A DNA stretch of 42,694 nt from positions 1 to 42,694 of the forward strand of contig NW_021835129.1 in the NCBI RefSeq assembly GCF_006345805.1, written 5' to 3'. The translations under genes were made by a program, and so were the position numbers. Source of the stretch: Octopus sinensis. Its lineage: Eukaryota. Shown here piece after piece: positions 14,211 to 37,978 of this stretch; the first letter of the stretch is position 1, and the number at the start of each line of letters is the position of its first letter. The notes beneath the pieces are model-generated. The model made no database searches. It was not told the origin of the DNA and was given only the letters and a program-made list of their open reading frames with translations.

Positions 14211-14662
14211 TCAAAACCCCATGTTTTTGGATAGGGAGATTCCAGAAAATTGCCAAAAATCGGAATTTTGAAATTTTTTGCCCCCACCCCTTCTCCTCAA
14301 TTTCATATTTCACTTTTTTCCATCACCCTAACTCTAAAACCCAACCCTAACCCTAACCTATCCCTAAAACCCCAACCCTATCTCTAAAACCCTAACCCTC
14401 AAACCCTAACCCTAGCTGTAATTAGAAAAATTTTTGTAAATTTTTTCAGAATCGTAATCTCTGTATTTTTCTGCATATTTTGACAAAACAAAAATTTGTG
14501 AAATAAAAATTTACAAAAATTTTTGGGAATTTTTTCCAGAAAAAAAAAAAAATTTCTGAAAAAAGTTAAAAATGAAGAACGGATGGGGTGTAATTTCAAA
14601 ATCCCGATTTTTGCCAATTTTTTTGCAGATTCGTATTCTCCCTAGTCGAAAATGGGGGTTTG
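14211..14662. repeat. Fold-back element with internal degenerate (TAACCC)n telomere-like tract at ~14325-14412
   Basis: Imperfect inverted arms (aaacccc..tagggaga..aaaattg.caaaaatcgg.attttgaaatt) enclose ccctaaccctaacc repeats. Confidence 0.65.
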
Positions 14663-15370: not shown

Positions 15371-15609
15371 AGAAACAAGTGGGGGAAGGGAGTGGGGCTA
15401 AAAAAAATCATAAATTTTCAAATTTTTTTTATAGTATGTGTTTTTATGTATGCGTTGAATTATGTATCCTCACCACTGGGCCAATCTTCTATTCATTCCC
15501 CACCCTTTTCACAATATTTATTTATTTGTTTTGGTTATCTTTCAGATACCCAGAATCTACAACCTTTTGAGAAATTCTGTCATTGCTGGTAGTGATAGAA
15601 TAGAAAGAA

Positions 15610-16144
15610 ATGGGATCTAAGAGAAAGAAGAATCTCTCGCGATCGCAGAGAAACAAGAAAAATTATGTATGTAAATGTAGATCAAAGAAAAATGTAACAA
15701 GCATTCCTGAGCAAGGGAACTTTTCAACAGGCATCCATAATGCTTTGCCGAGTACATCAGGCACTTTACAGGTCACCGAGGAACTTCACAATGCGAGCAA
15801 TTCACAGCTGAGGCCATACGTTGATGACTCATCAGATGAGGATATAGAGATAATGAGTCCAGAACACAAGAGGCGCCTGAATGACTGTTTGGTGAAATTG
15901 TTGGAAAATATGATTCCTGATGAAGTGCTCAATATTTTATTGGCAAAGAAAGTATTAACAATCTCTGAGATGGACACAGTTAAAAGTAAGGGAATCCGTA
16001 TGGCTATGAATGAAATGCTCATTTCTTTGGTGACCTGCAAGCCAGATAAAGCATTTAGTGTACTTGTAGAGGCCCTGAAGAGATCTGAGCAAAAGAATTT
16101 GGCCAAGTTACTGACATCTACCGAGTATCGAAAACGGAAACCAG
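15610..16144 (+). CDS. Host gene coding exon 1: basic N-terminus, linker, CARD (death-fold) domain at ~15853-16112
   Basis: MSPEHKRRLNDCLVKLLENMIPDEVLNILLAKKVLTISEMDTVKS..NEMLISLVTCKPDKAFSVLVEALKRSEQKNLAKLL fits the CARD helical pattern. Acceptor tctttcag at 15545 (exon starts 15546); phase-1 donor CCA G|gtaatt at 16144. Confidence 0.82.
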
Positions 16145-16462
16145 GTAATTTCTTCACATACAAATACAGACACACTCTTTCTTTCATAAACACTCCACAA
16201 CACTTCCCCTTACAAACATACACTCTGTCTTTTTTACACATGCACACGCACACACACACACACACTGAGGCATACATAGCTCCAGCTCCTTGCATTTCAC
16301 ACTACTATTGAAAATCAGTTAATTGTGAAACCGGTTAAGTAAATGCAACTAAATCTTGTTAAAGATACCAAGTTCATTTTCAATCTTTATCCTCTTTATA
16401 CCTCCACATGTGTAAAGAAAACCCTTATGTACACACATACACCCACATGAAACATATATATA

Positions 16463-16640
16463 TCATCATCATCATCATCATCATCATTTAGCGCCCGCTT
16501 TCCATGCTGGCATGGACGGTGCAACTGGGGTCTGGGAAGCCAGAAGGCTGCACCAGGCTTAGTCTGATCTGGCAATGTTTCTACGGCTGGATGCCCTTCC
16601 TAACGCCAACCACTCCATGAGTGTAGTGAGTGCTTTTTAC
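16463..16640 (-). mobile_element. RTE LINE 3' tail with (GAT)n; similar - strand tails at 18125-18315, 38463-38715 and 41484-41765
   Basis: Reverse complement of the 34290-34482 LINE end. Confidence 0.88.
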
Positions 16641-16739
16641 AAAAGAATAAGTCCCGGGGTCGAGTTGCTCGATTAAAGGCGGTGCTCCAGCATGGCCGCA
16701 GTCAAATGACTGAAACAAGTAAAATAGTAAAAGAGAGAG

Positions 16740-17757
16740 AGTTTCTGTTACTTAGGATGTTGTTCCAAAAGCGTAACTGCTAGAATAAGAATAGAATGGG
16801 CAAAGTTCAGAGAGCTACTACCTCTGCTAGTAACAAAGGGGCCTCTTCCTCAGAGTGAAAGGTAGGTTGTATGACGTCTGTGTATGAACAGCTATGCTAC
16901 ATAGCAGTGAAACACGGGCTGTGACTACTGAGACTTGAGAGAAATGAAGCCAGTATGCTCTGCTGGATTGGTAATGTCAATGTGCATATATGACAGAGTG
17001 TAGGTGATTTGTGAGAAAAACTGGATATACAAGGCATCAGATGTAGTGTGCAAGAGAGAAGACTGTGCTGGTACAATCATGTAATGCATATGAATGAAGG
17101 GTTGCATCAAGTGATACCAGTCTCTAATTGTGGAATAAAGTGGTTAGAAAGTAATCTTAAGGCATTGGGCCTAATAGAGGAGATCCCAGAGGTTTGCTGT
17201 GCTTGAGGTGACAAATCAAGCTATGTAAAATCATGGTTGTCCTTGCATACAAGCACGTCCCCTAGATCACTCTTCAGTTGAGTATCCCTAATCTTGAGGG
17301 CTTGCAAGTGCTAGTGTCATGTAAAAAGCACCTATACCTATTTCTTTACTACTCACAAGGGGCTAGACACAGAGGTTACAAACAAGGACAGACAAACAGA
17401 TTAAGTCGATTACATCAACCCCAGTGCGTAACTGGTACTTAATTTATCGACCCCGAAAGGATGAAAGGCAAAGTCGACCTCGGCGGAATTTGAACTCAGA
17501 ACGTAACAGCAGACGAAATACGGCTACGCATTTCACCTAGTGAGCTAACATTTCTGCCAGCTCGCCGCCTTAAAAAGCACCTATACCAGTGCCACATAAA
17601 AGCAGCCAGAACTCTTTGTAAAGTGGTTGGCTTCAGGAAGGGCATCAAGTCATAGAAACCTTGCCTAAACACACAGGGAGCCTGGTCAGTTCTTCAGTTG
17701 GTTATCTCCTGTCAAACCAGCCAACCCATGCAGTATGAAAAACAGACATATGATGAT
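16740..17757 (+). mobile_element. Degraded RTE LINE 3' part, interrupted by SINE B
   Basis: Collinear with ~33290-34480 (RIRIEWAKFRELLPLL..; RERRLCWY) and ends in (GAT)n. Confidence 0.8.
17339..17570 (-). mobile_element. SINE family B, full length, 17-bp TSD
   Basis: Head ggcggcgagctggcagaa; taaaaagcacctatacc is duplicated at 17322-17338 and 17571-17587. Confidence 0.92.
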
Positions 17758-18369
17758 GATGATGATTATGTGATTAAGAATCTCGCTTTGAAACTGAATG
17801 GCATTGGGTTCAGTTCTAGTGCACAGCACCATGGGCAATTGCCCTCTACTATAGCCCCAAGCTGACCAATGCCATGTGAGGGAATTTGGTAGAATGAAAT
17901 TGCGAGCAAGCCACTCACTCACACACACACATTCACATGAGTGTGTGTTTGCATTTGTCCCCTTACTACCACTAGACAATCTACTGTTGGTTTGTTTACA
18001 TCCCCTTAACTTAGTGATTAAACAGAAGAAGGGAAAATAAGTTTTGGTTTAAGTTTCTTTAGCTAAGGTGGTGCCCCAGAATGACTGCAGTCCAACGACT
18101 GAAAGTGAAATATAAAAAATGATATACATCATCATCATCATCATCATCATCACCATTTAGCGTCCGCTTTCCATGCTGGCATGAGTTGGACAGGTCAACT
18201 GGGGTCTGGGAAGCCAGAAGGCTGCACCAGGCCCAGTCTGATCTGGCAATGTTTCTACGGCTGGATGCCCTTCCTAACGCCAACCACTCCATGAGTGCAG
18301 TGGGTGCTTTTTACATTTAATGTCCGTTTTCTATGCTAGCATGGGTTGGAATATATATATATATATAAA

Positions 18370-18868
18370 TGGCTATTTCTTGCACCAGCTTCACATAGAA
18401 GCCTCAGCCCATCTAAAGTGCCTTGGATTGCAGGACGGCCTGCACTGCTTACCTTGGATCGTAGGGCGACCTGCTGTGCTTGAGGAGACCTATTGGGTCA
18501 AGTACATCAACAACAAAAAATGAAATGGAAATTGTAATTGTGATACCTGTGCCGGTGGCACGTTAAAAGCACCATCCGAACATGGCCAATGCCAGAGCCG
18601 CCTTGACTGGCTTCCGTGCCAGTGGCATGTAAAATGCACCAACTGATCATGGCCGTTGCCAGCCTCCCCTGGCACCTGTGCCGGTGGCACGTAAAATGCA
18701 CCCACTCCACTCACGGAGTGGTTGGTGTTAGGAAGGGCATCCAGCTGTAGAAACACTGCCAGATCAGACTGGAGCCTGGTCCAGCCTCCTGGCTTCCCAG
18801 ACCCCGGTTGAACCATCGAAACTATACTAGCATGGAAAACGGACGGTAAACGATGATGATGATGATGA
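18370..18868 (+). mobile_element. RTE LINE 3' UTR fragment with (GAT)n tail
   Basis: Collinear with 33820-34482. Confidence 0.88.
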
Positions 18869-19620
18869 TATATATAGGAGAATTTGTTTTTGAAAATGCA
18901 CATGGTTAAATGTTCACAGAATTCGATGACAGAGTTAGATAATATCAAAAATGATCTTCAAAGAGTATTAAAAATGTGGATTACTGAAAGTTTGGTCATA
19001 ACGAGTTATTATAGAATATGTGGACGAGAGAAAGAAGAAGAGAAGGGAGTAAAAAAAAAAAGGTTTGTTTTTACAGTTTCTATCATACATGGCATTCTGC
19101 TTTTTGGAATTAGTTTATATACATGTTTTTCCACGAATGGACCTAATTTTTGAATCATTATAATTCTTATGACATCTTATTCTTCCTGGGGGTCAAGTTT
19201 GGCATTCTACCTGGTTGACTTTGTTGAAGGGAATGGCGATCAATCTTTCCGGTTGGTTCATTCTCTTAAAGGGTCAGTTTGTTTTTTTTACTGAGCATCT
19301 GGTTCTGATCAGAGGTAAAATTTCATTGGTCTAGAGATAGGTGACATCAACAATTGACGTTTGAGAAGGTGTATGGTGTTATTGTTATCACTACCAGATA
19401 TATATATATATATTTCGATGGGTGAATAAATTATCCTATGTTTACTGTCAACATGGAAAATTCGATGAACCGATACCAGGGTAGCAAATTCACATCAGAA
19501 ACATGGTTGAAGCGACCTATCCAAAGGTAGAAACTCTGGGTTCATGTGCAGAAATTTGTGTGTTATATATGAATAAATAAATAAATGGAGTTGAACGAAG
19601 ATGTTAATAAAATTCTTTTA

Positions 19621-19702
19621 CTTTCGACATATGTTTCGAAGACAACATGGTTTTATTCCAAAGGAATAAACGGTGTAAGATGCAATCTTCTCATCAGGAA
19701 AG
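19621..19702 (-). ncRNA. Type I hammerhead ribozyme (canonical core, Penelope-associated type)
   Basis: Minus strand reads ctttc-CTGATGA-gaaga..(loop)..tcttc-GAAA-catatg-TC-gaaag, with stems I and II perfectly paired, a palindromic stem III (ACATATGT) and a GUC cleavage triplet. Confidence 0.8.
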
Positions 19703-19802
19703 AAAGGGAGCCTCTCTGTCTTCGAAACATATGTTGAAAGTAAAGGAATTTTATTAACATCTTCGTTCAACTCCATTTATTTATTTATTCATATATATAT
19801 AT

Positions 19803-20035
19803 ATTTCTTTACTACCCACAAGGGGCTAAACACAGAGGGGACAAACAAGGACAGACAAAGGGATTAAGTCGATTTACATCGAGACCCAGTACGCCACAGG
19901 TACTTTATTTATCGACCCCGAAAGGATGAAAGGCATCGTCGACCTCGGCGGAATATGAACTCAGAACGTAACGACAGACGAAATACCGCTAAGCGTTTCG
20001 CCCGGCGTGCTAACGTTTCTGCCAGCTTGCCGCCA
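19803..20035 (-). mobile_element. SINE family B, full length, within a TA tract
   Basis: High similarity to 17339-17570. Confidence 0.9.
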
Positions 20036-20370
20036 TACATATATATATATAATGAATAAGTGGGGATAGATTCTCCAGGCTGGTATCATTTGAGCGCTCG
20101 ATTATAATCCGGGTTGTGGCTAACACTGTATTTCATTCAATGGGTATATACTGGGTTTGCTTCGCAAGATTATCAATATTTTACCATGTGTATATCTAAG
20201 ACAATTACAATGAATATGGAGATTTGTACATCTGCATATTCTTTTATTTCCATAGTCAATTGTACAACATATTTGCTTTAAACTTATCCAACACATTTCT
20301 GGTGCATAGACATCGAGCAATTGCATTTGCATCTAGTTACTTTCAACTGATTATTAGTCTGCAACTTTAA

Positions 20371-20591
20371 CCCTTTTGATACCAACCCGGCTGAACCCAC
20401 CTCTGGCTCTGAGTACAAATGTCTTGTTTTCATAAGTTTTGAATTAAAATCTTCCACCAAACCTTAGTCACAATTTATGTTCCTAACACTAGCTTAATAA
20501 TAACTAAGTTATTTTACTAAATTCTTTGTCACATTTAAAATCAATCGAAAGAAACACAGAGCATCTCAACAGAAATATGGTAACAAAAGGG
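20371..20591. mobile_element. piggyBac-type MITE
   Basis: TTAA|cccttttg.tacca ... tggtaacaaaaggg|TTAA. Confidence 0.85.
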
Positions 20592-20715
20592 TTAATCTTT
20601 TTCACTCTGTGGAATCTTCACAGGTCCCATTAATATTGATGTTGAAGATATGAAAGGTGAAGATGACTTCAACAGCAATAAAATCATTCTTCCTTTCTTA
20701 AATAGCTTCTCTTAA

Positions 20716-20917
20716 CCCTTTCGTTACTAACCCGGCTGAATCTGGCTCTGTAGTACAAATGTCTTGTTTTCAAAAGTTCTGAATTAAAATCTTCCACCAA
20801 ACCTTAGTCACAATTTATGTTCCTAACACGAGCTGAATGATAATTAAGTTATTTTACTAAATTATTTATTATATTTAAAGTAATTGAAAGAAACACAGCA
20901 TCTCAAAATAAATAGGG
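20716..20917. mobile_element. Second copy of the piggyBac-type MITE
   Basis: TTAA|ccct ... aggg|TTAA, with a body very similar to 20371-20591. Confidence 0.82.
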
Positions 20918-21367
20918 TTAAGCAAGGTCCATCCACAGATATGGTTCAAAATGAACTAAGTGTATGTAGGCTTAGCTAGCATTATTTTCTTAGGTTACTA
21001 TAATTTTTGCGTGCAAAGAATGTGAGTGAAGGATTTGGAATCCTGAATTGCTATAAAAACTGCTATGGGATTGACCTTATCCTGACCCTAGGTTTGAAAT
21101 TCAAATTGAGACTACTAGATCTTTTAATTCAAAGTATATTATTTAAAAAGCCTGAGCCTTAATTGGATTATGAATTAGTGATCTTCAGATATTGTGTACA
21201 ATTATCGGTTACTAAACCAGACATAATTAAATATTGAGGTACACCGGATATCCTTTCTCCCACCACCATTAACTGTGTCTATTCTCCCAGACCCTCCTCC
21301 TCACTGTGCTGTTCTCTACATATTACCTGCACTCTCTCTTTCTCTATCTCTCTACTGAGACAAACAC

Positions 21368-21557
21368 AACTTTATAATGCGCACGTATGTGCCATCAAAT
21401 TGTCTCACAAACTCTTCATAAGCTTCAGAAGAGTTGTCTGGCCGTTTGATGCTGCAGAGCCATGACTTCAGTACATTACACATCTCACTTAAGCACTCTT
21501 TTCCTTTACTGTCAGAACTGGCTAAGTTCTCAATGTCAACTTGCATGCTTATCTCCC
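21368..21557 (-). CDS. Inverted 5' part of host exon 2, including its splice acceptor; 21368-21488 duplicates 22514-22634
   Basis: Minus strand reads tttatttttcttgcag|GG GAG ATA AGC ATG CAA.. (phase 1), i.e. EISMQVDIENLASSDSKGKECLSEMCNVLKSWLC.. The phase matches the exon 1 donor. Confidence 0.75.
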
Positions 21558-21649
21558 CTGCAAGAAAAATAAACAGGCTGTTTTGGTATTTTTTCTTAGT
21601 TTTTTTTTAGTTTTAAAATATTTACTATTAGTTTCCCCACCACAAAATA

Positions 21650-21962
21650 TCAAGAAAATAGACAAAAACAGCACCTGTGCTTTGAAGAACTTACTCTATG
21701 TCCTCAAATATGGTGGGTGTGATGGAGACTACATAGGTCAGACTAGTTTGACCTTGAGGGACAGACTGACGGTATACAAGCAACAAATCTGGGACCCCAT
21801 GACCAGGAAAATTCCCATAAGCAAACACTTAGACCAATGCCCTGCAAACATAAACCCAAAATACCAAATCGTCTCTCTCTATCAATGCACTGGAAACACT
21901 TCAACCCAATTCCAATTGAATAAGGAAAGCATATCATTAAAAATATAAACCACAACTAAATA
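21650..21962 (+). pseudogene. Penelope-like element GIY-YIG endonuclease fragment
   Basis: TCALKNLLYVLKYGGCDGDYIGQTSLTLRDRLTVYKQQI..ISKHLDQC..KE, then a frameshifted KYKPQLN end typical of Penelope endonucleases. Confidence 0.8.
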
Positions 21963-22454
21963 TCCTTTAAAAAGAAGAAAAACACTCAATTTCTCCACAG
22001 AAAAAAAGCAATCAGATACACAGACATAATTTGAAAACTTTAGTAACAGTTTTCCTCCTATGTTTCAAAACCACAATAACACAATACACTGGAGGTAGGA
22101 GCTGGTGTTAGCAGTGTTGTAAGTATAAGCATTATGGTCATCGAATGGTGTAGATTTAAGTTGTGTAGCAAAAATATGGATATTCCAATGTTAGGTTAGG
22201 AGGGAGTCAGCTAAAACTGGTTGCGTTTGTCCAGGAAGAGGAGGATTGAGGGTATAATGTAGGGTACCACCAACAGGGAAGGGTTCAGACAGAGAGAGAG
22301 GAAACAAGCTGATTCCTTCATACACACAAACACACCCACACACATGAACAAGCACACGTGGACAGTTGAATAGCATTCTCCTTCACTTGATAAGGCCAAG
22401 GTAAATTCCTGGGTAGTTGTTGGCATGTTTCTAGACTGAATGAAAATGAAACGA

Positions 22455-22512
22455 AAGCTAGCCGGGTAAGTAGGTAGGCAGATATCTGCCTACCTACTTA
22501 CCCGGCTAGCTT
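22455..22512. repeat. Perfect 58-bp spacerless palindrome
   Basis: aagctagccgggtaagtaggtaggcagat|atctgcctacctacttacccggctagctt. Confidence 0.97.
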
Positions 22513-22513
22513 C

Positions 22514-22894
22514 GTGAGATGTGTAATGTACTGAAGTCATGGCTCTGCAGCATCAAACGGCAAGACAACTCTTCTGAAGCTTATGAAGAGTTTGCGAGAC
22601 AATTTGATGGCACATACGTGCGCATTATAAAGTTTTGCAAACTTATGGAAAATCTAAGCAGCAAAGACCGGGCAGTTACTGATATTACAAATGGAAGTAT
22701 CCATCTCTGGTTCCATTGCTATACACTGAATGGTTTGTTAGATCTTTGGGAAATGTACAAAAGTGGGAAGTTTCTCCACCTTCTCCAGGAGTGTCTTATC
22801 AAACCAGATATAAAGCAGAAATTTCACCCGAAGATAAGAGTGAGAATAATTGATGAAGAATTTCAACAGTGTTATCAAGAATTATCTGGGCAAT
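22514..22894 (+). CDS. Host exon 2 body: TRADD-N-like domain; no acceptor at its 5' edge in the assembled orientation
   Basis: VTDITNGSIHLWFHCYTLNGLLDLWEMYKSGKFLHLLQECLI..IRVRIIDEEFQQCYQEL resembles the GS..C.....L..LW..Y.SG.L pattern I recall for animal TRADD-N-like domains. Phase-1 donor CAA T|gtaagc at 22894. Confidence 0.7.
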
Positions 22895-22984
22895 GTAAGC
22901 TTGACCATGTTTTCTAATGCTCTGAAACTTTTTTTTTACTTCACATTGTTTCTTTGTTAAATATTCAGGATGAAGCACAATTAT

Positions 22985-23232
22985 ATCTATCTATCTATCT
23001 ATCTATCTGTCTACATATCTATCTATCTATCTGTCTATCTATCTGTCTACATATCTATCCTTCTGTCTATCTGTCTACATATCTATCCTTCTGTCTATCT
23101 GTCTATCTATCTATCTGTCTATCTATCTATCTGTCTATCTATCTATCTGTCTATCTATCTGTCTATCTATATATCTGTCTGTCTTTCTATCTGTCTGTCT
23201 ATCTGTCTATCTATCTGTCTGTCCGTCTGTCT
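22985..23232. repeat. (TCTA/TCTG)n compound microsatellite
   Basis: Seen directly in the sequence. Confidence 0.97.
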
Positions 23233-23562
23233 ATTGTATTCTTATTCGTGTAACATCGTCCGTTTTTCCGTCCTTGTTTTGTATACATTCGAGGCTTTCT
23301 TCCAAGGAATCTAATGCGCTTGGCTTAGATTTTCCTTTGGGGCTGGCCAGGTCGGAGCAATCAGATGATCCGGTTCTTGACTGAAGATTGAAGGCTTCGA
23401 ATGTCCCGTCTGTGTTTTTTGTCTCGTCTTCTAAATGTTTTGCGTTCTTGTCCCAGTTTATATTTTCTTACATATATATATATATAGCGGCACCCGTACC
23501 CTTTTGGTCTTATTTATATATCTGTCTATCTATATATCTGTCTGTCTATCTATCTATCTATC

Positions 23563-23642
<80 letters not shown>

Positions 23643-23892
23643 CACATATATACACACACACACATGTATACACTTAAATGCATGCACATATATACATACA
23701 CACGTGTGCCTGTGGGTGTTTGTGCAACCGGTGTTGGTGTGTTTACATCTCTGTAAGCCAGTGGGTCAGCTTAAGGGACTGATAGAATAAGTACCAGGCT
23801 TAAAAGTAATTCCTGGAGTAAATTCATCTGACTAAAATTCTTCCAGCACAGCCACAGTCTAATGACTAAAACAAGTAAAAGGATGAAAGGAG

Positions 23893-23933
<41 letters not shown>

Positions 23934-23935
23934 TC

Positions 23936-24328
23936 AGGAGTGGCTGTGTGGTAAGTAGCTTGCTTACCAACCACATAGTTCCGGGTTCAATCCCACTGCG
24001 TGGCACCTTGTGCAAGTGTCTTCTACTATAGCCTCGGGCCGACCAAAGCCTTGTGAGTGGATCTGGTAGACAGAAACTGAAAGAAGCCCATCGCATCTAT
24101 GTATATATATGTATGTGTGCGTGTGTATTTGTGTGTCTGTGTTTGTCCCCCTAGCATTGCTTGACAACCGATGCTGGTGTGTTTACGTCCCCGTCACTTA
24201 GCGGTTCGGCAAAAGAGACCGATAGAATAAGTACTGCGCTTACAGAGTATAATTCCCGGGGTCGAGTTGCTCGACTAGAGGTGGTGCTCCAGCATGGCCG
24301 CAGTCAAATGACTGAAACAAGTAAAAGA
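23936..24328 (+). mobile_element. SINE family A, near full length
   Basis: High similarity to the other family A copies. Confidence 0.92.
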
Positions 24329-24483
24329 ATATATGTAGCGTCATCTTGTAAATAATGCTGTCTTTTCAGTTGCATGAACTAAAAGTTGGCGGGAGACAGG
24401 ATAACAAAAGCAGGTAGTAATTTTACCATGTACTTATTCTTTGTGCAAGTTTTGAAGAGTTCAGTTATTTTTTCAAAGCTATA

Positions 24484-25396
24484 ATGGAATTGACAAAGGA
24501 ACATATTCAGCATATTTTGCTTTATGAGTTCAATAAAGGCAAACAACGCAACAGAAAGTGCAAGGAATGTTAATGCAGCATACAGCGATCGGACAAGTGT
24601 AATCCAGTGTCAACAGTGGTTCCAGAAATTCTGAGATGGAAACTACAGCCTAGAAAACGAGCCTCACCCTGAAAGATCTGTAGAGGTTGGCGAGGATGTC
24701 CTGCAAAACCTGGTGGAACAAAATCCTGTTGTAATTGTTGAAGAACTAGCAGAGAAGCTTGGATTTGGTCATTCAACCATTCATCGACACCTGTGTGCCT
24801 TCAAAAAAGTCAGCAAATTCAGTCAATGGGTTCCTCACAAAATTTCCGAGTCTAATCGCGTGCAGAGAGTGAATGTGTGCTCTTCTTTGCTGTCACATCT
24901 CATCACTGAACCATTTTTGGACTGAAGAGTGACTGGTGACGAGAAATGGGCTCTCTTCAAAAATGTCAAGCGCCGAAGACAGTGGGTAGGGAAAGGAGAA
25001 ACACTGGTTAAAGAAGGTCTTCACCCTTGTAAGGTGTTGTTATTTGTTTGGTGGGATGTGAAAGGTTTAATCCACTTTGAACTTTTGAACCAAATGATAA
25101 CAAGGGAGATCTACTGTGAGCAGCTTGAGTTGCTTAAGTCAGCACTAGAAGAAAAACGACCATCTTTGGTTTGAAGACGAAAGGTGTTCTTCCATCAGGA
25201 TAATGCTCGGCCATATACAGTGACGATGACATTCTAAAGGCTGGAGCAGTTTGAATGGGAAATGATGCCCCACCCACCATATTTGCTGGACGTCGCCCCA
25301 TCTGATTATCATTTATTCAGCAGTCTTCAGAATCATTTGGACGGAAAAAATATGAATTCTGTAGATGAGGTCAGAACAGTACTGGAAGAGTATTAT
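24484..25396 (+). pseudogene. Mariner transposase pseudogene of a different family, 3'-truncated near a TA tract
   Basis: MELTKEHIQHILLYEFNKG, QWVPHKIS, VTGDEKW, KVLLFVWWD, FFHQDNARP and PHPPYLLDVAPSDYHLF, with multiple stops. Confidence 0.92.
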
Positions 25397-25966
25397 TACA
25401 TATATATATGTTGGTGTCATTAGAATTTTAAGTGTTTGAGAGAATGTGAAATAATTTTATATGGAACTGGATCTCGAAGCATACATATAAACCTATAAAT
25501 AATACCATATTAATATTGGGTTGGATAGAACAAAATCATTGGCTGCCTCTCAGGCTTGAACCTAAGTTACAGAGATGTAGACACACCAACACAGGTTGTC
25601 AAGTGGTGATGGAGGACAAACACTGACACACAGACATACATACATATATGTTGGGCTTCTTTCAGTTTCCATCTACCAAATTTATTCACAAGGCTTTGGT
25701 CAGCCTAAGGTGGGGCTTAAGATTTGGTAAAAAGGTTTTTTAAGGGATTATAATACTATCCATGTATAAGTAAGTCCCATATTTTTTTAACCTAATTTTG
25801 ACAAAAAAAGGGTTTCTTACACACGTTAAAATTAGGTTATATGACATTAGGGTATGATACAGCTTTGCAGCCCCTCATGTCAGACCCTGTCAGACTGTCC
25901 AGCCCATGCCAGCATAGAAAACGGGTATGAAATGATGATGGCGATGACATAAGTACCTGACAACCC

Positions 25967-26132
25967 CAAGGCGGTGTCTCCCTCAAAATTGCTGGCCTTG
26001 TGCCAAAATGTGAAACCATTGTCAAGGCAGTGTCTCCTTCAAAATTGCTGGCTTTGTGCCAAAATGTGAAACCATTGCCAAGGCAGTGTCTCCCTCCAAA
26101 TTGCTGGCCTGGTACCAAAATGTGAAACCATT
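25967..26132. repeat. 56-bp tandem repeat, 3 units
   Basis: Units caaggc.gtgtctcc.tcaaaattgctggc.ttgtgccaaaatgtgaaaccatt start at 25967, 26023 and 26079. Confidence 0.92.
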
Positions 26133-27293: not shown

Positions 27294-27340
27294 CATTTGA
27301 AGGAAACAAAGATGTCACTGAGGATCGGAAGGCCGTACAG
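27294..27340 (+). CDS. Putative small host exon (47 nt, phase 1 to 0)
   Basis: ttgttttgttccag|CA TTT GAA..GTA CAG|gtgagc; open frame (S)FEGNKDVTEDRKAVQ; phase fits the 22894 donor; lies in non-repetitive-looking sequence. Confidence 0.6.
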
Positions 27341-27519
27341 GTGAGCGAGTGGACTTTGGTTCTTGAAACATTCCATATTTTATACTGAGATAGTAAACAT
27401 TACATGTGTGTGTGTGCGTGCATGTATACTTACATACGTAAATGTGTGACTTTTGTAGATACTTGTACACACACACACACGCACACTCATATACGTATGT
27501 ATATATGAACACACACACA

Positions 27520-28151
27520 TCTCTATATATATAAAACTGAGAATGTGTGTCTGTCTGTGTGTTTCCTTAAAACTTGAGAACTACACAACCAATTTCATTC
27601 AAATTTTACATATGCCTTACTTAGGGTCCATGTAGTTTCATGGGAAGAAAAAAATGTTCAACTTCTTGCCTAGGGCGAGCCCATAGCAATATCATATCTT
27701 CTCCACTATTTCAGTATTATGTGTTAAAAGTGAAACAAAAACATTTCTCTATTTTATATCAGATACTTTCACTTTAACAATAAAAATAATAATAACAATT
27801 GAATTATATGTAGTAAGTAATAATTAAAATCAAACTTAAGTATAATATAATCGTAACATAACAAAAGTAAAAATAGCAATTGGTATAAAATTGCATCAAT
27901 GATTTGAACTTGAATAAGTGGTTTCACATGAATGGGAATAAATTAAAAATAAAATTAGCGTGCAGAAATGGAATAGTCCTACAATTCCAGTCTGTTATAT
28001 ATTTTCAGTATTGTTATCACTAGCGATATCAAGATATAACTTTGTATTTTGTATTTTATGTGTAGATGTACATGTAATATGTACACATATATATACACAT
28101 ATATACATGCACTAGCACTATGACCCGGCAAAGATGGGTCTTTAATGCTAG
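27520..28151 (+). mobile_element. Non-autonomous Helitron
   Basis: A|TCtctatatatataaaa 5' end; 3' hairpin gaccc..gggtc followed by CTAG|T. Confidence 0.75.
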
Positions 28152-28159
28152 TATATTTA

Positions 28160-29940
28160 TACATTTGGCATGGTTTCTACAGCTGGATGTCCTTCTGAAC
28201 GCCAACCACTCTGAGAGTGTAATGGGTGCTTTTACGTGCCATCAGCACAGGTGCCATTTGTGTGGCACCAGCATCTGCCATGACTGCTATTTTACTTGGC
28301 TTTGTCAATCTTCTTCAAGCACAGCATAATGCCAAAGGTCTTGGTCATTGCTTCTGTGAGGCCCAACGCTCGAAAGGAACTATTCACATGCCACTGGCAT
28401 CAACCACTTTGCCTCCGTGAGGCCCAATGCTTGAAAGATGCATTCTACTTGGTACTGGCACAGGTGCCTGTTATGTGATACCAGCATCATCCACAACGAT
28501 TTCACTTGGCTTGACCGGTCTTCTCAAGCACAGCATATTGACAAAGATCTTGGTCACTAGTCATTGCCTTTGTGAGGCCCAAAGTTTGAAGAGCATGCTT
28601 CACCACCTCGTCACGTCTTCCTGGGTCTACCTCTAACACAGGTTCCCTTCACAGTTAGAGATTGGCACTTCTTTACACAGCTGTCCTCATCCATATGCTT
28701 CACATGACCATACCAGCACAGTCGTCTCTCTTGTACACCACATCTGATGCCTCTTATGCCCAACTTCTCCCTCAAGACGTTGGATCTTTTCGGTTTGAAT
28801 AGCAGTTTTTAACATAATTTCTAGGTAACTAAAAAATTTTAAACTTCGTATACTGGTAGAATGTGTTTATAAAACATCTTTTTCTCTTGGCTTTATAGAG
28901 AAAATTCTATAGTTCGTAAGATATTTGTTGTTTTTTTTTCTTCAATTTCTGCAATTTCAACCAATCAAATACATCTATTGAGTTAAAAAACATTCTGTGC
29001 TGTATGAATATGTCCCTCGTTTAAGAAACAGATTGGGTTTATTTACATTTGTGAAGAAAAAAAGATACCCTTACCCTAACCAACTCTAACTAACCCTAAC
29101 CCTAAAAGAGATTGAAATGCAATAGATTCTAGGGTCATAATTATGGGTGACAATTTCATATGACACCGCTAGAAAAAACTGCCTGTCAAACTGAAAAGAT
29201 CCAAGATGTTTACACTCTGTGAAACATGCACACTGACATTGTTCATCCATTGAAGCCTACTGGCTTCATTTCTTTTCAATGCAACACATGTCCTCGACTG
29301 TCAGAGCCCATGTTTCGCTACCATGTAGCATAGCTGTTCACACACAGGCATCATACAATCTGCCTTTCACTCCAAGGGAGAAGCCCTTTGTTACCAGCAG
29401 AGGTAGGAACTCTCTGGACTTTGCCCAACCCATTCTTATTCTGACTGCTACGCTCTCGGAGCACCCACCTCTACTACTAACTTGGCCACCTAGCTAACAG
29501 AAGCTGTCTGCTACCTCTAGCTTACCCTCCTGCCTTTTGATGGCATCTCTTTTCTGTACATTCTCAATGTATCTTCCACACAAAACGCTATTCTCCCTGT
29601 TAACCTTACTCTGATATTGCTGCACCTCTTATGTGGCCATAGCTTACACCAGGTAAATCTTTTCTACAGATCAAGCAGGGCCATCTACCTGAAGGGATTT
29701 GTGATTTGTCTGCCTTCTTATTTACTAAGACCTTTCAATTCTAGACCTTGCTTCCATACCTGGAATGTCTTCTCTAGTTCTGATAGTGATTCAGCTACAA
29801 GAACATGGTCATCAGCATAGAGGAGCTCCCAGTGGCAGCCTGTCTGAAATTCTTCTGTTATTGCCTGGAGGACTATGATGAATAAGAGGGAGCTGGTAAC
29901 TGATCCTTGGTGGACCCCTACTTGTACCTTGAATTCATAC
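28160..29940 (-). mobile_element. Degraded RTE LINE (RT to 3' UTR) split by a MITE
   Basis: Reverse-complement collinear with ~32755-34350 (VGVHQGS, WELLYADD, DSFC-LGGQVSSRGGCSES). Confidence 0.85.
28782..29202. mobile_element. Merlin-type MITE with internal TAACCC tract; a partial right-end copy lies at ~29940-30013
   Basis: TIRs ggatcttttc.gtttga..gcagtttttt; 8-bp TSD aagacgtt / aagatgtt. Confidence 0.85.
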
Positions 29941-30104
29941 TAGGGTCATAATTATGGGTGACAATTTCATATGACACTGCTAGAAAAAACTGCCGTTCAA
30001 ACTGAAAAGATCCCATTTTTTATTTAACACCCTCCCTGCCTCATAAATCCTAAAATTTCAGCTTCTTTTCAAAATTTGTTTTAATCATAGTTTTTAATTA
30101 CAGG

Positions 30105-31360
30105 CAGTTGAGAAGTTTGACAAGAAGGAGAGAGAACTACAAATCTATAACATAGAGGGCAACTGGGAATTCCTACGGGACAGCTTGCTGAGTGCCACTG
30201 ACCAAAGCTGGTGCAAAGTCCTATCCAGACCGAGGGTGATGTGGAGGTGGAATGATGCTGTAGACAAGGCCATTAGAGCAAAGAGACAGGCCTGGAAGTG
30301 TGGGGTTAGCAGGGAACTGTATCAGATAGCCCGAAGGAAAGCTAGGAGGCAGGTACATTTATCCAGGGAAGTAGCAGAAAAGAAGTTTGCCAATGTTCTG
30401 TGACATGAGGACCAGAGACTTGAAGTGTTTTGGATTGCAAGACAGTGTGTGTGAGAAAATCCTGATGAGTTAGGAGAGAAATGTGTCTGCATGAATGATG
30501 GTTCACTTGCATTTAGTGATTCTGCAAAGAAAGAGGCTTGGAAATACCTTTATGAAAGGCTGCTAAATGTGGAGAATGAATGGGACAAGAGGGAGCTGGT
30601 AACTGATCCTTGGTGGACCCCTACTTGTACCTTGACCCAACAGAGGAACTAGGTATTCAAATTGACAGTAGCCTAGTAGATAAAGCAATTAAGGATACGA
30701 AGACAGAGAAAGCCCCCGGCCCATCAGGAATCACTGCTGAGATACTTAAAATATCTGGTGGAGTAGGATATTAGCTTGGTCACTCATATACTCTTTTACT
30801 TGTTTCAGTCATTTGACTGCGGCCATGCTGGAGCACCGCCTTTAGTCGTGCAAATCGACACTGGGACTTATTCCATGTAAGCCCAGTACTTATTCCATCG
30901 GTCTCTTTTGCCGAACCGCTAAGTGATGGGGACATAAACACACCAGCATCAGTTGTCAAGCAATGCTAGGGGGACAAACATACACACACAAACACACAAA
31001 CACACACACATACACACATATACATATATATACATATATACGACAGGCTTCTTTCAGTTTCCGTCTACCAAATCCACTCACAAGGCATTGGTCGGCTCGG
31101 GGCTATAGTAGAAGACACTTGCCCAAGATGCCACGCAGTGGGACTGAACCCGGAACCATGTGGTTGGTTAGCAAGCTACTTACCACACAGCCACAATGAG
31201 ATTGTCCATGAGGGCGTCATACCTGATGATTGATCTAGCAGCACTGTAGTCAGGTGTTACAAAGGCAAAGGTGATGCCTTAGACAAAAACAATTACAGAG
31301 GCATCAAATTGCTGGACTGGGTGATAAGAGTCACAGAAAAGGTCATAGCTCAATTAATTT
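30105..31360 (+). mobile_element. Degraded RTE LINE (region upstream of RT core), interrupted by SINE A at 30790-31193 (- strand)
   Basis: WRWNDAVDKAIRAKRQAWK, KAPGPSGITAE and YKGKGDALDKNNYRGIKLL; the 3' part is collinear with 32010-32470. Confidence 0.85.
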
Positions 31361-31725
31361 GCTTTCCAACAGCATAATTCCATGTTCAATCCCACTGCAT
31401 GGCACCTTGGGCAAGTGTCTTCTACTATAACCTCAGGCCAACCAAAGCCTTGTGAGTGGATTTGGTGAATGGAAACTGAAAGAAGCCCATTGTATATAAA
31501 TGTGTGTGTGTGTGTGTGCATGCTTTGTGTTTGCTCTGTGCTACCACTTGACTGTTGGTGTTGATGTGTTTACTTCTCTATAACTTAGCTGTTTAGCAAA
31601 AGAAACTGATAGAATAAGCATCAGGCTGGCTTAAAAAAAAGTACCAAGGTCGATTCATTCGACTAAAAATTCCTCGATACAGTCTCTAGCATGGCTGCAG
31701 TCTTGTAACTGAAACAAGTGAAAAA
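31360..31725 (+). mobile_element. Diverged SINE family A copy
   Basis: gttcaatcccactgc.tggcaccttgggcaagtgtc..gaaacaag. Confidence 0.8.
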
Positions 31726-31744
31726 GAAGATATAAATGTGTGTG

Positions 31745-32001
<257 letters not shown>

Positions 32002-32009
32002 AATGTGTC

Positions 32010-34478
32010 TAGGAGAGAAATGTGTCCGCATGGATGATGGGGCACTTGCTTTTAATGTTGGTGAAAAGAAAGAGGCTTGGAGAAGCTATTATGAAAGACT
32101 GTTGAATGTGGAGAATGAATGGGAGGAGGAGAGCCTGCCAAATGTTGATCCAGTAGAGGGACCAGCTATCCAAATAGATAGCTCCCTTGTAGTTAAGGCA
32201 ATTAAGGGTATGAAACCAGGTAAAGCCCCCGGCCCATCGGGAATCACTGCTGAGAGGCTTAAAACAGCAGGTTATGTGGGCTACGGCCTAGTCACCCGTA
32301 TTGTAAACCAGGTAGTTCATAATGGAGTCATACCCAATGACTGGCGTAGCAGCACCATAGTCAACTGCTACAAGGGTAAGGGTGATGCTCTAGATAGAAA
32401 TAACTACAGGGGTTTTAAACTGTTGGACCAGGTGATGAAGGTCACAGAGAGGGTCATAGCCCATCTCATTAGTGAGAGAATTTGCTTAGATGAGATGCAG
32501 TTCGGGATTTTGTGCCGGGTAGAAGCACCACTGATGCTATATTCCTGGTCCGACAACTGCAGGAGAAATACCTAGCTAAAGATAAACCCCTCTACATAGC
32601 TTTTGTGGACTTGGAGAAAGCCTTTGACAGGGTCCCCCGATCCCTTATCTGGTGGTCGATGCGGAAACTGGAGATTGATGAATGGCTAATAAGGGCTGTA
32701 CAGGCCCTATACAGAGAGGCTGTCGGCAAGGTTAGGATTGGCAACGAATATAGTGAAGAATTCCGGGTAGAAGTAGGTGTACACCAAGGCTCAGCTGTCA
32801 GTCCCCTTTTATTCATCATAGTCCTCCAGGCAATAACAGAGGAATTCAAAACAGGTTTCCCCTGGGAGCTCCTTTATGCTGATGACCTGACTCTCATAGC
32901 AGAATCACTACCGGAACTAGAAAAGAAATTTCGGGTGTGGAAACAAGAGTTAGAATCAAAGGGCCTTAGAGTAAATATAGCAAAGATCAAAGTTATAGTA
33001 AGCAGAAAGGCAAACTCAGCACACACCCCATCGGGCAGGTGGCCCTGCTCGATCTGTAGGAAAGGTGTAGGTAGAAACTCCATAAGATGCACCCAGTATA
33101 AGCTATGGACGCATAAGAGGTGCAGCAACATCAAAGGGAAATTAACTGATAAGATAGCTTTCATGTGCGGCAGATGCACAGGGACAATAGACACCACAAA
33201 TACTCAGAAAACAGATTCCATCACACTCCAGGGGGAGAAACTAGAAGTAGTTGATAGTTTCCGCTACCTGGGTGACCAAGTTAGTAGTGGAGGTGGATGC
33301 TCAGAGAGTGTCACCACTAGAATACAAATAGCCTGGGCAAAGTTTAGAAAGCTCCTACCCCTACTGGCGACAAAGGGTCTCTCACTCAGAGTGAAAGTAG
33401 ATTGTATGATGCATGTGTGCGAACTGCCATGCTTCACGGTAGTGAAACATGGGCCGTGACTGTAGAGGACATGCGTTGACTCGAAAGAAATGAAGCTAGC
33501 ATGATCCGCTGGATGTGTAATGTCAGTGTGCATGCACGACAGAGTGTAAGCACCCTGAGAGAAATGCTGGACATAAGAAGCATCAGCTGTGGTATACAAG
33601 AGCGACGCTTGCGATGGTACGGTCATGTACTTCGGATGGATGAGGAGAGATGTGTGAAGAAGTGCCATTCCCAAACAGTTGAAGGAATCAGGGGGAGAGG
33701 TAGACCCAGGAAGACATGGGATGAGGTAGCCAAGCATGACCTCAGAACGTTGGGCCTCATTGAGGCAATGGCGAAGGACCGAGATCTCTGGAGATGTGCT
33801 GTGACTGCAAAGACCCGAGCTGCTTCCTGCACCAGTTCCGCATAGCCCCTGCCCATTCAAAGTACCTTGGATCCCAGAACATCCCGCTGTGCTTGAGGAG
33901 ACCTGTTGAGTCAAGTACATGAACATCGAAACAAATATCAATGGAAATGGTAGATGTGATACCTGTGCCGGTGGCACATAAGAAGCATCATCCGGACGTG
34001 ACTGTTGCCAGCGCCGCTTCGATTGGCTTCTGTGCCGGTGGCACATAAAAAGCACCATCCGAACGTGGCCGATGCCAGCGCCGCTTCTATTGGCTTCTGT
34101 GCCGGTGGCACATAAAAAGCACCATCCGAACGTGGCCGATGCCAGCGCCGCTTCTATTGGCTTCTGTGCCGGTGGCACATAAAAAGCACCATCCGAACGT
34201 GGCCGATGCCAGCGCCGCCCTGGCTGGCTTCCGTGCCGATGTGATCGTGGCCGATGCCAGACTCCTCTGGCACTTGTGCCGGTGTCACGTAAAAAGCACC
34301 CACTACACTCGCGGAGTGGTTGGCATTAGGAAGGGCATCCAGCTGTAGAAACACTGCCAGATCAGACTGGAGCCTGGTGCAGCCCGTGGCTTCCCAGACT
34401 CCGGTCGAACCATCCAACCCGTGCTAGTGCGGAAAACGGACGTTAAACGTTAAATGATGATGATGATGATGATGATGA

Positions 34479-34482
<4 letters not shown>
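32010..34482 (+). mobile_element. 5'-truncated RTE-clade LINE: RT, Cys-rich insert, 3' UTR with 67-bp tandem repeats and (GAT)n tail
   Basis: KAPGPSGI, NYRGFKLL, GRSTTDAIF, AFVDLEKAFDRV, GVHQGS, LLYADD, FRYLG, RRLRWYGHV and RGRGRPRKTW; frameshifts near 32510 and 33400; flanked by TA tracts. Confidence 0.95.
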
Positions 34483-34512
<30 letters not shown>

Positions 34513-36081
34513 CAAATAAGAAAATGGAGAAACAAATTCAGTTTGTTCATCAACTTAATGTTGGATTATTTATTCATTTTACAAATGAGAACATCAAAAG
34601 CATACAAAATATTATATAATACAATAGATAAAATAATAATACAAATAAAATTTCGTTTGTTTTTGATGTTCTCATTTGTAAAATGAATAAATAATCCAAC
34701 ATTACAATATCCGTAAATTGATGAACAAACTAAATTTGTTTCTCCATTTTCTTATTTGTTTTAATAAATATATATATGTATATATATACGAGATGAATTT
34801 GTTTCTCCATTTTCTTATTTGTATTATAAATTTATGGTAAAAATATTTCTTTACCTTCACCCGTTTAATACAGTAAATGACTTAATTGTATTGCAATTAA
34901 AAACATTTATGTAGTAAGAATCTGGGTACTTTACCAACAGTATATTGGATAAATGATATCCCATAGTGGGTTACACCCATAACCCCTATCTTACTTTGTA
35001 TATATATGTATATATATATATCTTATTATAAAAGGCAGATTTTATCTGCCTCCCTTTGTCTCTTATAGAAATCTACAATATAGGATTTCTTCAATTACAA
35101 TTTACCTAGCATTTTAAAGAGTAGAATACATCGGGTCGTGCCAGGTACAGTTTTTCAAATTTCACCCCCAATTAAGCAAAATTTCGAGAAAACTCACAAT
35201 GTGGTGTGTAAGTGAAGTGCTTTTCTTAGTGTGTGCTACAGCACACACACACACACACACAAATGGAGCGAACTGCTTCACTCATGCTATCACCCTAATT
35301 TCTCCTACTTTCTCTTTGCAAGTGTACCTTACAACACTACTCAAAAAAAAAAACAGCAAACAGAAACAAATAAATATATAACGATTTACTCCTCACACAA
35401 TTTCTTCAATTACAGTTTACCTATGATTTTTACAAGTACTTCCATTCGGTCATGCCATACAAAATTTCTTTCAATTTCACCCCCAATTAAGACAAAATTC
35501 GAGAAAACTCAATTTTTTAACATTTCACTCTTTCACTTTGAAGCCTTTACTCTGCCTATTACTCCCACTTCCTCTTTACACACATAGACACGCAAATATA
35601 TAAATAAAATTGTAAGCTAACGTGTGTGTGTGTGTGTGTGTGTGTTGTGTGTGTGTGTGTGTGTGTGTGCGTGTGTGTGTGTGTGAGTGTGTGTGTGTGT
35701 GTGACAGGGATGAGCCATTCAGTCTGGTCATCCCTTTTTGCTAGAAGATCCTCTATGGTCTTATATGCTACACCACTGGTTTTCAGTTCAAGAAGGACTA
35801 TTCATTATAATACATCAGTTCCACACATTTACCCTGGTTCCATTTCGGACAACTGCACAAACATTTGCCATTTCACACATGTATGTAAACAAATTCCTTT
35901 CTTAAAAATTTCAATTCAATTTCTTTTACAATTTACGTTTCTATACACTTTACGCAAATATTTGATTAAACAACTAAAACACTTCACATTTCGAACATGT
36001 ACGTAAACTACTGCCATTCTTGCAAATCTAACTTCATTTTCTTGCATTTAACTCAAATTTCAATACATTTTACACACTCTG

Positions 36082-36441
36082 CTCCATACAAAGTTTTTTA
36101 GGACGAAAATAAGATCTAAAGTTATCTCTAAGTAGTAGGAAGATCGCCCAAAAGTGTATATAGATATTTAAATGTATTTATATATTCATCTATACACAGA
36201 TGTATGTATAACGTATGTGTATATATTTCCATAGAGGTAACCATTCACTCCGCACAAAGTTTTTTAGGACGAAAATAAGATCTAAAGTTATCTCTAAGAA
36301 GCAGAAAGATCGCCCAAAAGTGTATATAGATATTTAAATGTATTTATATATTCATCTATACACACATGTATGTATAATGTGTGTGTATATATTTCCATAG
36401 AGGTAACCATTCACTCCATACAAAGTTTTTTAGGACGAAAA
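36082..36441. repeat. 166-bp tandem repeat (2 units plus a partial), downstream of a Helitron-like start at 35021
   Basis: Units ctcc..acaaagttttt..aggacgaaaat start at 36082, 36248 and 36414; A|TCttattataaaa at 35021. Confidence 0.8.
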
Positions 36442-37286
36442 TCTATATATAAAAGAAAGGTTGTGTGTCTGTCTACTCCAATTTACATTCCTAACTAATC
36501 CCACATTTTGCGATGCAGTTTAACCAAAAGCGGGTATCTTTTAGTCGTGATTCATATCGAGCCCTTCTGGGTATTAGCGCGCGTCTACGATGAGTCTACG
36601 ATTTTAAAAATAATTTACCATCATTTATTTCCATTTTAATGCATATTTTTTTTAATAAAGGGAAGTAACTCTCAAACTTCACACCAATATGCGTGCTCAT
36701 ATGCGACGTAATATCACATCAGCAGCTTTTCCTCACACCCTCCTTGCACTTGCCGAAGGCAAAATACCAGGGGATGAAAATGGTAATATTGCCATCGATT
36801 CCATTTGTACCATTGTTAAGACGCCTTCTGATCTCAGAGATGCAGTGTTCACAGATCTACAAGCTAATTATCAGAATATGGATTGGATTGGCCAAAAGGC
36901 TATACTGGCCCCGAGGAATAAAACTGTTCACCATATTAATGATGAAATGCTAAAACTCATTCCTGGGGAAGTCTATGTATATCAGTCTATCGATACAACT
37001 CCTGACCCAGATGACGTCATCAACTATCCAATAGAGGTACTCAATTCCTTTGAGCACCCCGGACTACCACCACACATTCTCAAACTTAAAGTTGGTGCCC
37101 CTATAATGCTCATCAGAAATTTGGTTACCCCAAAACAATGCAATGGCACACGTTTGATCGTTAAGTCCTTATCTCCCACCGTAAACTTATATCAATATTT
37201 GCCTGAATAATCATCATAATTCAGTGCAATCATTAACAGTACTTTCAAGCAATTCAGCCCCGAGCAACGCCGGGCAATTCTGCTAG
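36442..37286 (+). mobile_element. Internally deleted Helitron carrying a Pif1 helicase segment (36689-37180)
   Basis: A|TCtatatataaaa start and hairpin + CTAG|T end; KAILAPRNKTVHHIN and GLPPHILKLKVGAPIMLIRNL..CNGTRLIV. Confidence 0.9.
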
Positions 37287-37454
37287 TATATATATAAAGG
37301 GAAAGTTTCGAAAATAAACAAAAGACTAAGGCAGGTGGTGTATAAACAAACAGATGTATTAGTATAGCGCACAGGAATAGAAAAAGTCTTTTACGTTTCG
37401 AGCCTACGCTCTTCTACAGAAAGGGACACAGAAAAAACAAGGAGAAAATCATGG

Positions 37455-37812
37455 CGTATATAATGGCAAAATGTCTGTGTGCGTGTCCTTTATACAAATC
37501 CACAATTTTTCTGTTAGAGGTCTCGCACTTTCTGTGATTATTCAAATCCATCCAAGGGTGGTCGTGCACATCTTTACATTTCCCTAGTCACCCCGCAAAG
37601 CCATTAAGAAATCAATAGAAGTGACTTTTTTTGTGAATTTTCTATCCAAAATCCAATCAAAATGCCCGAAACTTGATACGCCAATTGAATGCCAGCTAGC
37701 TGTATGTGATTGGTCGGAGATTTGGACAGTACTCACGTGTATGTGTGCATGCACGCAGCTGTATATGCAGGCACTAACACTATGACCCGGTGTTGCCAGG
37801 TCATACTGCTAG
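37455..37812 (+). mobile_element. Non-autonomous Helitron (5' end uncertain)
   Basis: 3' end cactatgacc..ggtcata hairpin + CTAG|T, similar to 28110-28151. Confidence 0.65.
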
Positions 37813-37895
37813 TATATATATATATATATATATCGTGTGTGGTATGTCATGTTTGCCAGTAAGTCATAAAATGATTTCCAAACATTTTATTTTAG

Positions 37896-37978
37896 GAGTC
37901 ACCTATTTCAGCTAAGGTGAAAAAAAGGATTACACGTCAAAATATCCAACCCAAAGGCAGAAAGACATTGAAGGAAAA
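37896..37978 (+). CDS. Putative small host exon (83 nt, phase 0 to 2)
   Basis: ttttattttag|GAG TCA..GAA AA|gtaagt; open frame ESPISAKVKKRITRQNIQPKGRKTLKE; phase fits the 27340 donor. Confidence 0.6.

Follow-up and report, generated by a model that had tools for sequence, protein, structure and literature searches.

We analyzed a 42,694-nucleotide (nt) stretch of Octopus sinensis DNA (contig NW_021835129.1), here called the window, which is AT-rich and crowded with microsatellites and transposon fragments. It contains a gene that is probably the Octopus copy of a molluscan gene encoding a CARD together with a TRADD-N domain of the DEDD2 clade. In this copy, an inversion of about 1.1 kilobases (kb) probably flipped the splice acceptor of the TRADD-N exon together with its initial 69 nt, and in-frame splicing from exon A to exon C likely yields a CARD protein without TRADD-N. 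The domain architecture itself is already catalogued; this copy carries what is probably a recent, domain-losing rearrangement.

The gene was mapped with seven close protein relatives, all from Octopus: P0001 and P0002 from O. vulgaris, P0003 from O. bimaculoides, and the models P0004-P0007 from O. sinensis. All four exons (A, B, C and D) matched annotated Octopus proteins in tblastn searches. Exon A (15546-16144, + strand) comprises the 5′ untranslated region, an ATG at 15610, a basic N-terminus, an acidic patch, the CARD (amino acids (aa) 88-170) and a basic RKRKP linker. It is bounded by AG/GT ends with a phase-1 donor, and its protein equals that of models P0005-P0007 at 176 of 178 aa. The surviving 3′ part of exon B (22514-22894, +) encodes helices, the strand β2, a GS turn, β3, a further helix, β4 and the last helix of a TRADD-N-like domain; its phase-1 donor after 22894 is intact, and it is not preceded by an in-phase T-rich acceptor. 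Exon C (27294-27340, +) is only 47 nt long, runs from phase 1 to 0, and is defined by its splice sites and by tblastn matches to all seven proteins. Two other segments considered for exon C, 27715-27812 and 35745-35880, were dropped when the homologues pointed to 27294-27340. Exon D (37896-37978, +; phase 0 to 2) encodes a basic linker, has tblastn matches to P0001-P0006 and, when read past its donor, meets a stop one codon later.

An alternative terminal exon at 30104-30403 (+) is used by the O. sinensis model P0007. It consists of repeat-like sequence with no Pfam match, and adjoining repeat matches make it likely that this exon is retroelement-derived. Between 37979 and the end of the window at 42694, no further coding exon was found by tblastn (best E 0.066). 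The earlier note had predicted a four-exon gene with the consecutive phases 1, 1, 0 and 2. The exons, donors and phases hold, but the chain is not phase-compatible on the + strand, since exon B has its acceptor and its initial 69 nt on the minus strand.

The CARD, which had previously been called from motifs, is confirmed by Pfam (PF00619; 57.4 bits against a cut-off of 23.9, E 1.5e-15). Its fold was assessed on an AlphaFold2 (AF2) model of the O. bimaculoides relative P0003, a different protein from that of the window, built on a 32-row alignment and with a mean pLDDT (predicted local distance difference test score) of 71. Over the CARD the local pLDDT is 93-97, and the model adopts the six-helix death fold found in solved CARDs, matching the Apaf-1 CARD (1z6t_A) with a Z-score of 18.0 and a root-mean-square deviation of 1.0 over 90 aligned residues. 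The window CARD and that of the O. bimaculoides protein are identical at 66 of 87 aa.

The inverted segment extends on the minus strand from 21365 to about 22500, its right end lying either at the palindrome center (22483) or at 22512. It was recognized by self-blast, an inverted-repeat search and tblastn matches in frame -2 to P0001-P0003, and contains the 3′ end of intron 1 with its acceptor and, beyond it, the 5′ part of exon B. The true 5′ end of this exon is found from 21557 to 21489 on the minus strand: 69 nt, preceded by a T-rich CAG acceptor in phase 1, encoding the predicted strand β1 of TRADD-N, and identical to P0001 and P0002 at 21 of 23 aa. These 69 nt run directly into the left-breakpoint copy of an inverted duplicate (21488 to 21365, minus strand; 124 nt), of which 121 nt are identical to 22514-22637, leaving three mismatches. 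At the right breakpoint lies a perfect palindrome (22455-22512, both strands) of 58 nt with 29-nt arms and no loop. Apart from (AT)n runs, only one other perfect palindrome with arms of at least 10 nt was listed, and its arms are 12 nt long. Self-comparison of the window revealed no duplicate of the rest of the inverted segment.

In the simplest reading of this arrangement, about 1.1 kb was inverted between a break in intron 1 and a second, staggered break within exon B. Because the two copies of the duplicate differ at just 3 of 124 nt, we infer that the event was recent. It may have arisen through staggered breaks or through a fold-back template switch, either of which would leave inverted duplications at the breakpoints; the second would account for the palindrome as well. 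Two further features of the region were seen. The palindrome contains on both strands a donor-like GGTAAGT, which was not seen to serve in splicing, and a 140-aa open frame without Pfam match lies inside the inverted segment (21526-21948, +). The latter includes a YIGQT motif, presumably as in the GIY-YIG endonucleases of Penelope-like elements.

The consequences for splicing follow from the exon phases. Reassembled from its two parts, exon B is 450 nt long and runs from phase 1 to phase 1, which gives a frame of 372 aa with CARD and TRADD-N. In the window as it lies, a complete TRADD-N is not encoded collinearly after the CARD, and the inverted 5′ end of exon B rules out the intact CARD plus TRADD-N protein that had been predicted from this copy. 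Joining exon A to the AG at 22510 (phase 0) or to that at 22519 gives a stop after 180 aa. Since exon B is 450 nt long with phase 1 at both ends, skipping it keeps the frame, and the A-to-C product has 222 aa, ending at the stop that directly follows exon D.

Such skipping is modeled in the databases. Of the four O. sinensis proteins retrieved, P0005, P0006 and P0007 join exon A to exon C, and P0004 begins within the surviving 3′ part of exon B; intact exon B is present in P0001 and P0002 of O. vulgaris and in P0003 of O. bimaculoides. P0007 equals exons A and C of the window followed by 30104-30403 at 291 of 293 aa, and P0005 and P0006 differ from the window at eight more positions in exon D, which places the window closest to the P0007 locus. 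It is most likely because of this inversion that the O. sinensis models look CARD-only or TRADD-N-truncated. P0001, P0004, P0005 and P0006 continue with further CARDs, for which the remainder of the window offered no match. A downstream caspase, NACHT, kinase or Roc domain, suggested earlier, did not materialize: none of these families was present in the four of seven Octopus proteins that were scanned against Pfam.

The TRADD-N-like assignment, also made originally by motif recall, is borne out by the relatives and by a family profile. P0003 passes the Pfam TRADD-like_N profile (PF20694) with 30.5 against 23.7 bits. When scored against a profile of 29 rows from which the three named Octopus proteins had been left out, the surviving window piece obtained 105.8 bits over profile positions 28-157. 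The same profile gave 14.3 bits over positions 2-60 for the inverted piece of exon B and -0.3 bits for the exon-skip model. In the ESM Atlas, the features of the window piece were 0.94 similar to those of TRADD-like_N clusters, and the structure of P0003 matched a TRADD-like_N cluster with a template modeling (TM) score of 0.61/0.79. In the AF2 model of P0003, four strands occur in the order expected of the RRM-like α+β sandwich of this superfamily, with β1 at residues 187-199 and the GS motif between strands 271-277 and 281-287, i.e., in the β2-β3 turn. This motif, the uS motif of the family, lies at residues 62-63 of the window piece, and all 20 aligned rows share its serine. A sequence-profile search of the PDB with the TRADD-N alignment returned weak helical matches only (best E 0.014).

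Searching with the surviving exon B piece, phmmer returned 41 matches at E ≤ 0.001. Among the 38 further relatives found in this way, 28 match PF20694 at E ≤ 0.01, 12 score above its cut-off, and eight contain a CARD. A relative from Solemya used as query identified 33 proteins that are 41-70% identical, those with names coming from bivalves, gastropods and a chiton. The basic linker, another element of the original prediction, is present in the window (RKRKP and exon D) and recurs, as at least four K/R in the 14 residues preceding the domain, in 31 of 34 rows; the GS motif occurs in 33 of 34. For this count 35 rows were given, of which 34 contain the domain and one had no match. A tree of 62 rows (four partial rows and four without the domain having been left out) groups the Octopus rows with support of 82/91 on a long stem (1.14), where they join a long-branch row in an unresolved fork. 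As the tree does not place them, their orthology rests on shared architecture and on the junction sequence. In four relatives (P0008, P0020, P0035 and P0039), short gene calls start at the β1 motif and end just past the last helix, which suggests that distant relatives, too, encode the TRADD-N domain in a single exon bounded at the same places. The names 'kinesin-related protein 4' and 'caspase-2' carried by some relatives were not borne out in the scanned proteins, and no kinesin family was found in P0001, P0002 and P0024.

Sequencing runs offered a view of the gene in other animals. None of the 24 runs listed is on record as RNA, and four were compared with 15500-22950, a region ending upstream of exons C and D. 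Run X15, guessed to be RNA, contained a 1083-nt contig (record 17; depth 26.6) from another animal. This contig follows, without gaps, 15584-16141 on the + strand, 21560-21368 on the minus strand and 22635-22894 on the + strand. It is thus a spliced, intact A-to-B transcript if X15 is, as is likely, RNA. Across 1011 nt it has 17 differences from the window (10, 3 and 4 in the three segments) and must therefore come from another allele or paralogue. The joining of the exons, for which the earlier note had asked for transcript support, is accordingly seen for the gene family and not for this copy. The contig agrees with the + copy of the duplicate at 21440 and does not differ from the minus copy at 21407, from which each genomic copy appears to carry a change of its own. 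A contig from run X13, also guessed to be RNA, extends unspliced from exon A into intron 1 and was not used as transcript evidence.

The DNA run X1 has one difference from the window over 732 nt at exon A. Its contig over the inverted acceptor (21459-21732) terminates at 21459, having entered the duplicated segment by exactly 30 nt. A k=31 graph must branch where the duplicated segment has two upstream neighbors, so this end fits the breakpoint and supports, indirectly, the presence of the rearrangement in raw data.

The differences between the window and X15 also bear on sequence evolution. All 16 that were listed of the 17 (15638-22827) are non-synonymous, as are the four listed for X13. With 72-79% non-synonymous changes expected at random, the probability of 16 out of 16 is 0.005-0.02, or 0.03-0.10 if the unlisted one is silent. 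The duplicated helical segment (22514-22637) is hypervariable among Octopus copies, being identical to P0001 and P0002 at 22 of 41 aa, compared with about 91% in the flanks. These values, from one post-hoc comparison of 16 sites, hint at diversifying selection, to which lost constraint on a broken copy could contribute. RNA editing as the source of the differences was dropped, just one of the 16 listed being A>G on the transcript strand. Nor does the X15 contig derive from the inverted copy by a strand switch or by trans-splicing: the switch lies inside duplicated exon sequence and not at splice sites, and the 17 differences from the window copy also counter such an origin.

Several observations weigh against the proposed loss of TRADD-N by inversion and exon skipping. 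The A-to-C junction, although likely, rests on database models whose RNA support is not visible, and the only spliced contig seen for the gene, that of X15, has the intact form. X1 is possibly the sample behind the window assembly, and among the matches listed, which are dominated by repeats, no contig or read bridges either inversion junction. On its own, the surviving TRADD-N part of the window stays under the Pfam TRADD-like_N cut-off (E 0.012). PDB fold searches with the P0003 model gave lists filled by death folds and CARD matches, with no TRADD-N chain among the matches listed, and the tree fails to place the Octopus rows firmly within the mollusc CARD clade.

Three other explanations were weighed against these data. 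With a real inversion, the window copy could be a dying duplicate or null allele that gives little stable transcript or protein, an intact paralogue doing the work. We see a minor but real chance of this: the relatives have two or more nearly identical copies (a pair of O. vulgaris proteins, and two O. sinensis gene identifiers with identical exon A), P0007 ends in a repeat-like exon, the one spliced contig is intact, and an excess of amino acid changes is also expected from lost constraint. The frames and splice sites of exons A, C and D are nevertheless intact, which is uninformative if the event is recent, and the in-frame skip is modeled in three of the four O. sinensis proteins retrieved. 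A reduced form of the earlier note's model, in which a cryptic phase-1 acceptor in the surviving part of exon B gives a CARD plus a TRADD-N without β1, seems very unlikely. None of the seven retrieved Octopus proteins joins a CARD to a truncated exon B. The six phase-1 AGs between 22480 and 22760, which would join 16144 to 22565, 22580, 22589, 22667, 22676 or 22742, keep frames of 273-332 aa open, yet every one is T-poor: the preceding 16 nt contain 0-7 T, whereas 8-12 are present at the five acceptors that are true or annotated. Four of them have an A at -3, and every one removes the predicted β1 of the four-stranded sheet. In favor of such splicing, the 3′ part retains its donor and GS motif, and at least one predicted transcript, that of P0004, includes this part.

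Palindromes and inverted duplications can also arise from chimeric reads, and the inversion, duplication and palindrome might be an assembly or long-read fold-back artefact in a gene that is really an intact CARD plus TRADD-N. The intact spliced contig comes from a run that shares its organism code with X1, and a junction-spanning contig was missing among the matches listed. An artefact is still highly improbable, since the two copies of the duplicate differ from each other, the contig assembled from short reads of X1 stops precisely at the breakpoint, the 5′ part of exon B is likewise absent from database models that differ from the window by 2 aa in exon A, and the X15 contig, with its 17 differences, is not from this copy. 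Loss of TRADD-N through inversion, with exon A spliced straight to exon C and exon B omitted, is the explanation that we favor as likely.

DEDD proteins carry a nuclear localization signal, and by analogy the conserved basic linker may act as one here. Contacts between CARDs would recruit the intact protein to a complex in apoptosis or immunity, with TRADD-N serving as an interaction switch by way of its conserved serine; this proposal draws on Kaur et al. (2021; PMC8195603), who describe DEDD2 as nucleolar, and on general death-fold biology. The skipped form would measure 222 aa if exon D is its last, and more if further CARDs follow as in P0005. It would retain CARD binding but not the switch, and might become a bare scaffold or a competitor. 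Such functions of the intact and skipped proteins are predictions, as they are for every family member. A more far-reaching scenario, which we regard as distinctly unlikely, is that in Octopus a conserved molluscan CARD-TRADD-N adaptor became a duplicated, fast-evolving immune family shaped by diversifying selection, with a segregating inversion inside the gene switching TRADD-N off to give a functional CARD-only decoy, parallel to the primate CARD-only inhibitors.

The results correct the annotation of this gene, intact copies probably being spliced in other animals while the O. sinensis models look truncated. Provided that the inversion segregates and that skipping does yield a product, the locus would offer a natural domain-deletion test of TRADD-N function in invertebrates, for which only computational predictions were found in the literature. 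According to Kaur et al. (2021), TRADD-N domains are very few or absent in cephalopods, and the hint of diversifying selection, based on 16 sites in one comparison, would qualify this statement.

Several of the window's transposon fragments could be classified. A 327-aa frame at 10958-11938 (minus strand) contains an ISXO2-like transposase domain (PF12762, E 1.9e-16), and broken fragments of mariner-type transposases (PF01359) lie at 2983-3735 (minus strand) and 24635-25171 (+). A fragment of a Pif1 helicase 2B domain (PF21530, E 2.7e-15) at 36659-37207 (+) is likely Helitron-derived, and fragments resembling it, without Pfam match, occur at 1645-2168. There is also a frameshifted reverse transcriptase of a long interspersed nuclear element (LINE) at 32000-33845 (+; PF00078, E 2e-23), with related fragments at 28517-30759, 16761-17097 and 39263-39892. 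Self-inverted sequences of 230-420 nt with 75-82% identity at 7341-7655, 9124-9518, 19564-19797 and 34482-34788 possibly resemble miniature inverted-repeat transposable elements. In addition, a degenerate telomere-like (ACCCTA)n array (14325-14414) is located about 1.1 kb upstream of exon A, and a tandem duplication with a 166-nt unit (2.2 copies, 94% matches) at 36082-36442.

Counterparts of the gene have been catalogued by Kaur et al. (2021; PMC8195603), who define the DEDD2 clade, the uS motif in the β2-β3 turn and a switch model. The earlier note knew of no characterized cephalopod example, but Fig. 4-source data 1 of that paper lists, as computational entries, O. bimaculoides KOF75889.1 (391 aa, CARD+TRADDN-DEDD2) and LOC106877111 (587 aa, CARD+TRADDN-DEDD2+CARD). 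P0003 (391 aa, named LOC106877111) is taken to be that O. bimaculoides gene. The same architecture is given for Lottia (LOTGIDRAFT_234111), Mizuhopecten (LOC110448711), Crassostrea, Pomacea, Biomphalaria (LOC106061941) and Aplysia (LOC101861459), and 'CARD+TRADDN' occurs at least 53 times in that list. No experimental study of this gene was found; searches combining TRADD-N with CARD in invertebrates, or with DEDD2 in cephalopods, gave only Kaur et al., most subscription journals lying outside the search, and the best 20 of 386 publications on Octopus and CARD included no study of it.

In the molluscan CARD+TRADDN-DEDD2 proteins, CARD, basic linker and TRADD-N follow in the same order as in the un-inverted Octopus gene, and the 3′ TRADD-N part of the window is identical to the O. 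bimaculoides protein at 66 of 86 aa. The window copy differs from all of them in that its TRADD-N exon is split by the inversion. The Octopus sequences, moreover, are only about 30% identical to those of other molluscs, appear duplicated and have extra C-terminal CARDs. Vertebrate DEDD2/FLAME-3 and TRADD likewise combine a death-fold domain with a TRADD-N that has the conserved uS turn, the Octopus gene having a CARD where these have a DED or Death domain. Residues 186-352 of P0003, as an Atlas model, matched a DEDD cluster with a TM-score of 0.59 and a TRADD cluster with 0.50, both below the Atlas naming bar. Octopus has a separate DED+TRADDN-DEDD2 gene (LOC106881630; PMC8195603), from which it follows that the CARD+TRADD-N gene is not the DEDD2 orthologue.

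For the putative CARD-only product, the primate proteins CARD16/COP, CARD17/INCA and CARD18/ICEBERG offer an analogy only. They are CARD-only products that arose by duplication beside a parent gene (PMC7555848), and their origin in the caspase-1 cluster is unrelated, whereas the loss in Octopus would result from an intragenic inversion and exon skipping, with a hypothetical role as decoy. The rearrangement itself resembles the inversions described by Ranz et al. (2007; PMC1885836), which have non-repetitive inverted duplications at their breakpoints, as found here, attributed by these authors to staggered breaks. The Octopus inversion differs from these cases by its size of about 1.1 kb, its position within a single gene, and the extra perfect palindrome at one junction, which suggests fold-back repair as an alternative to staggered breaks.

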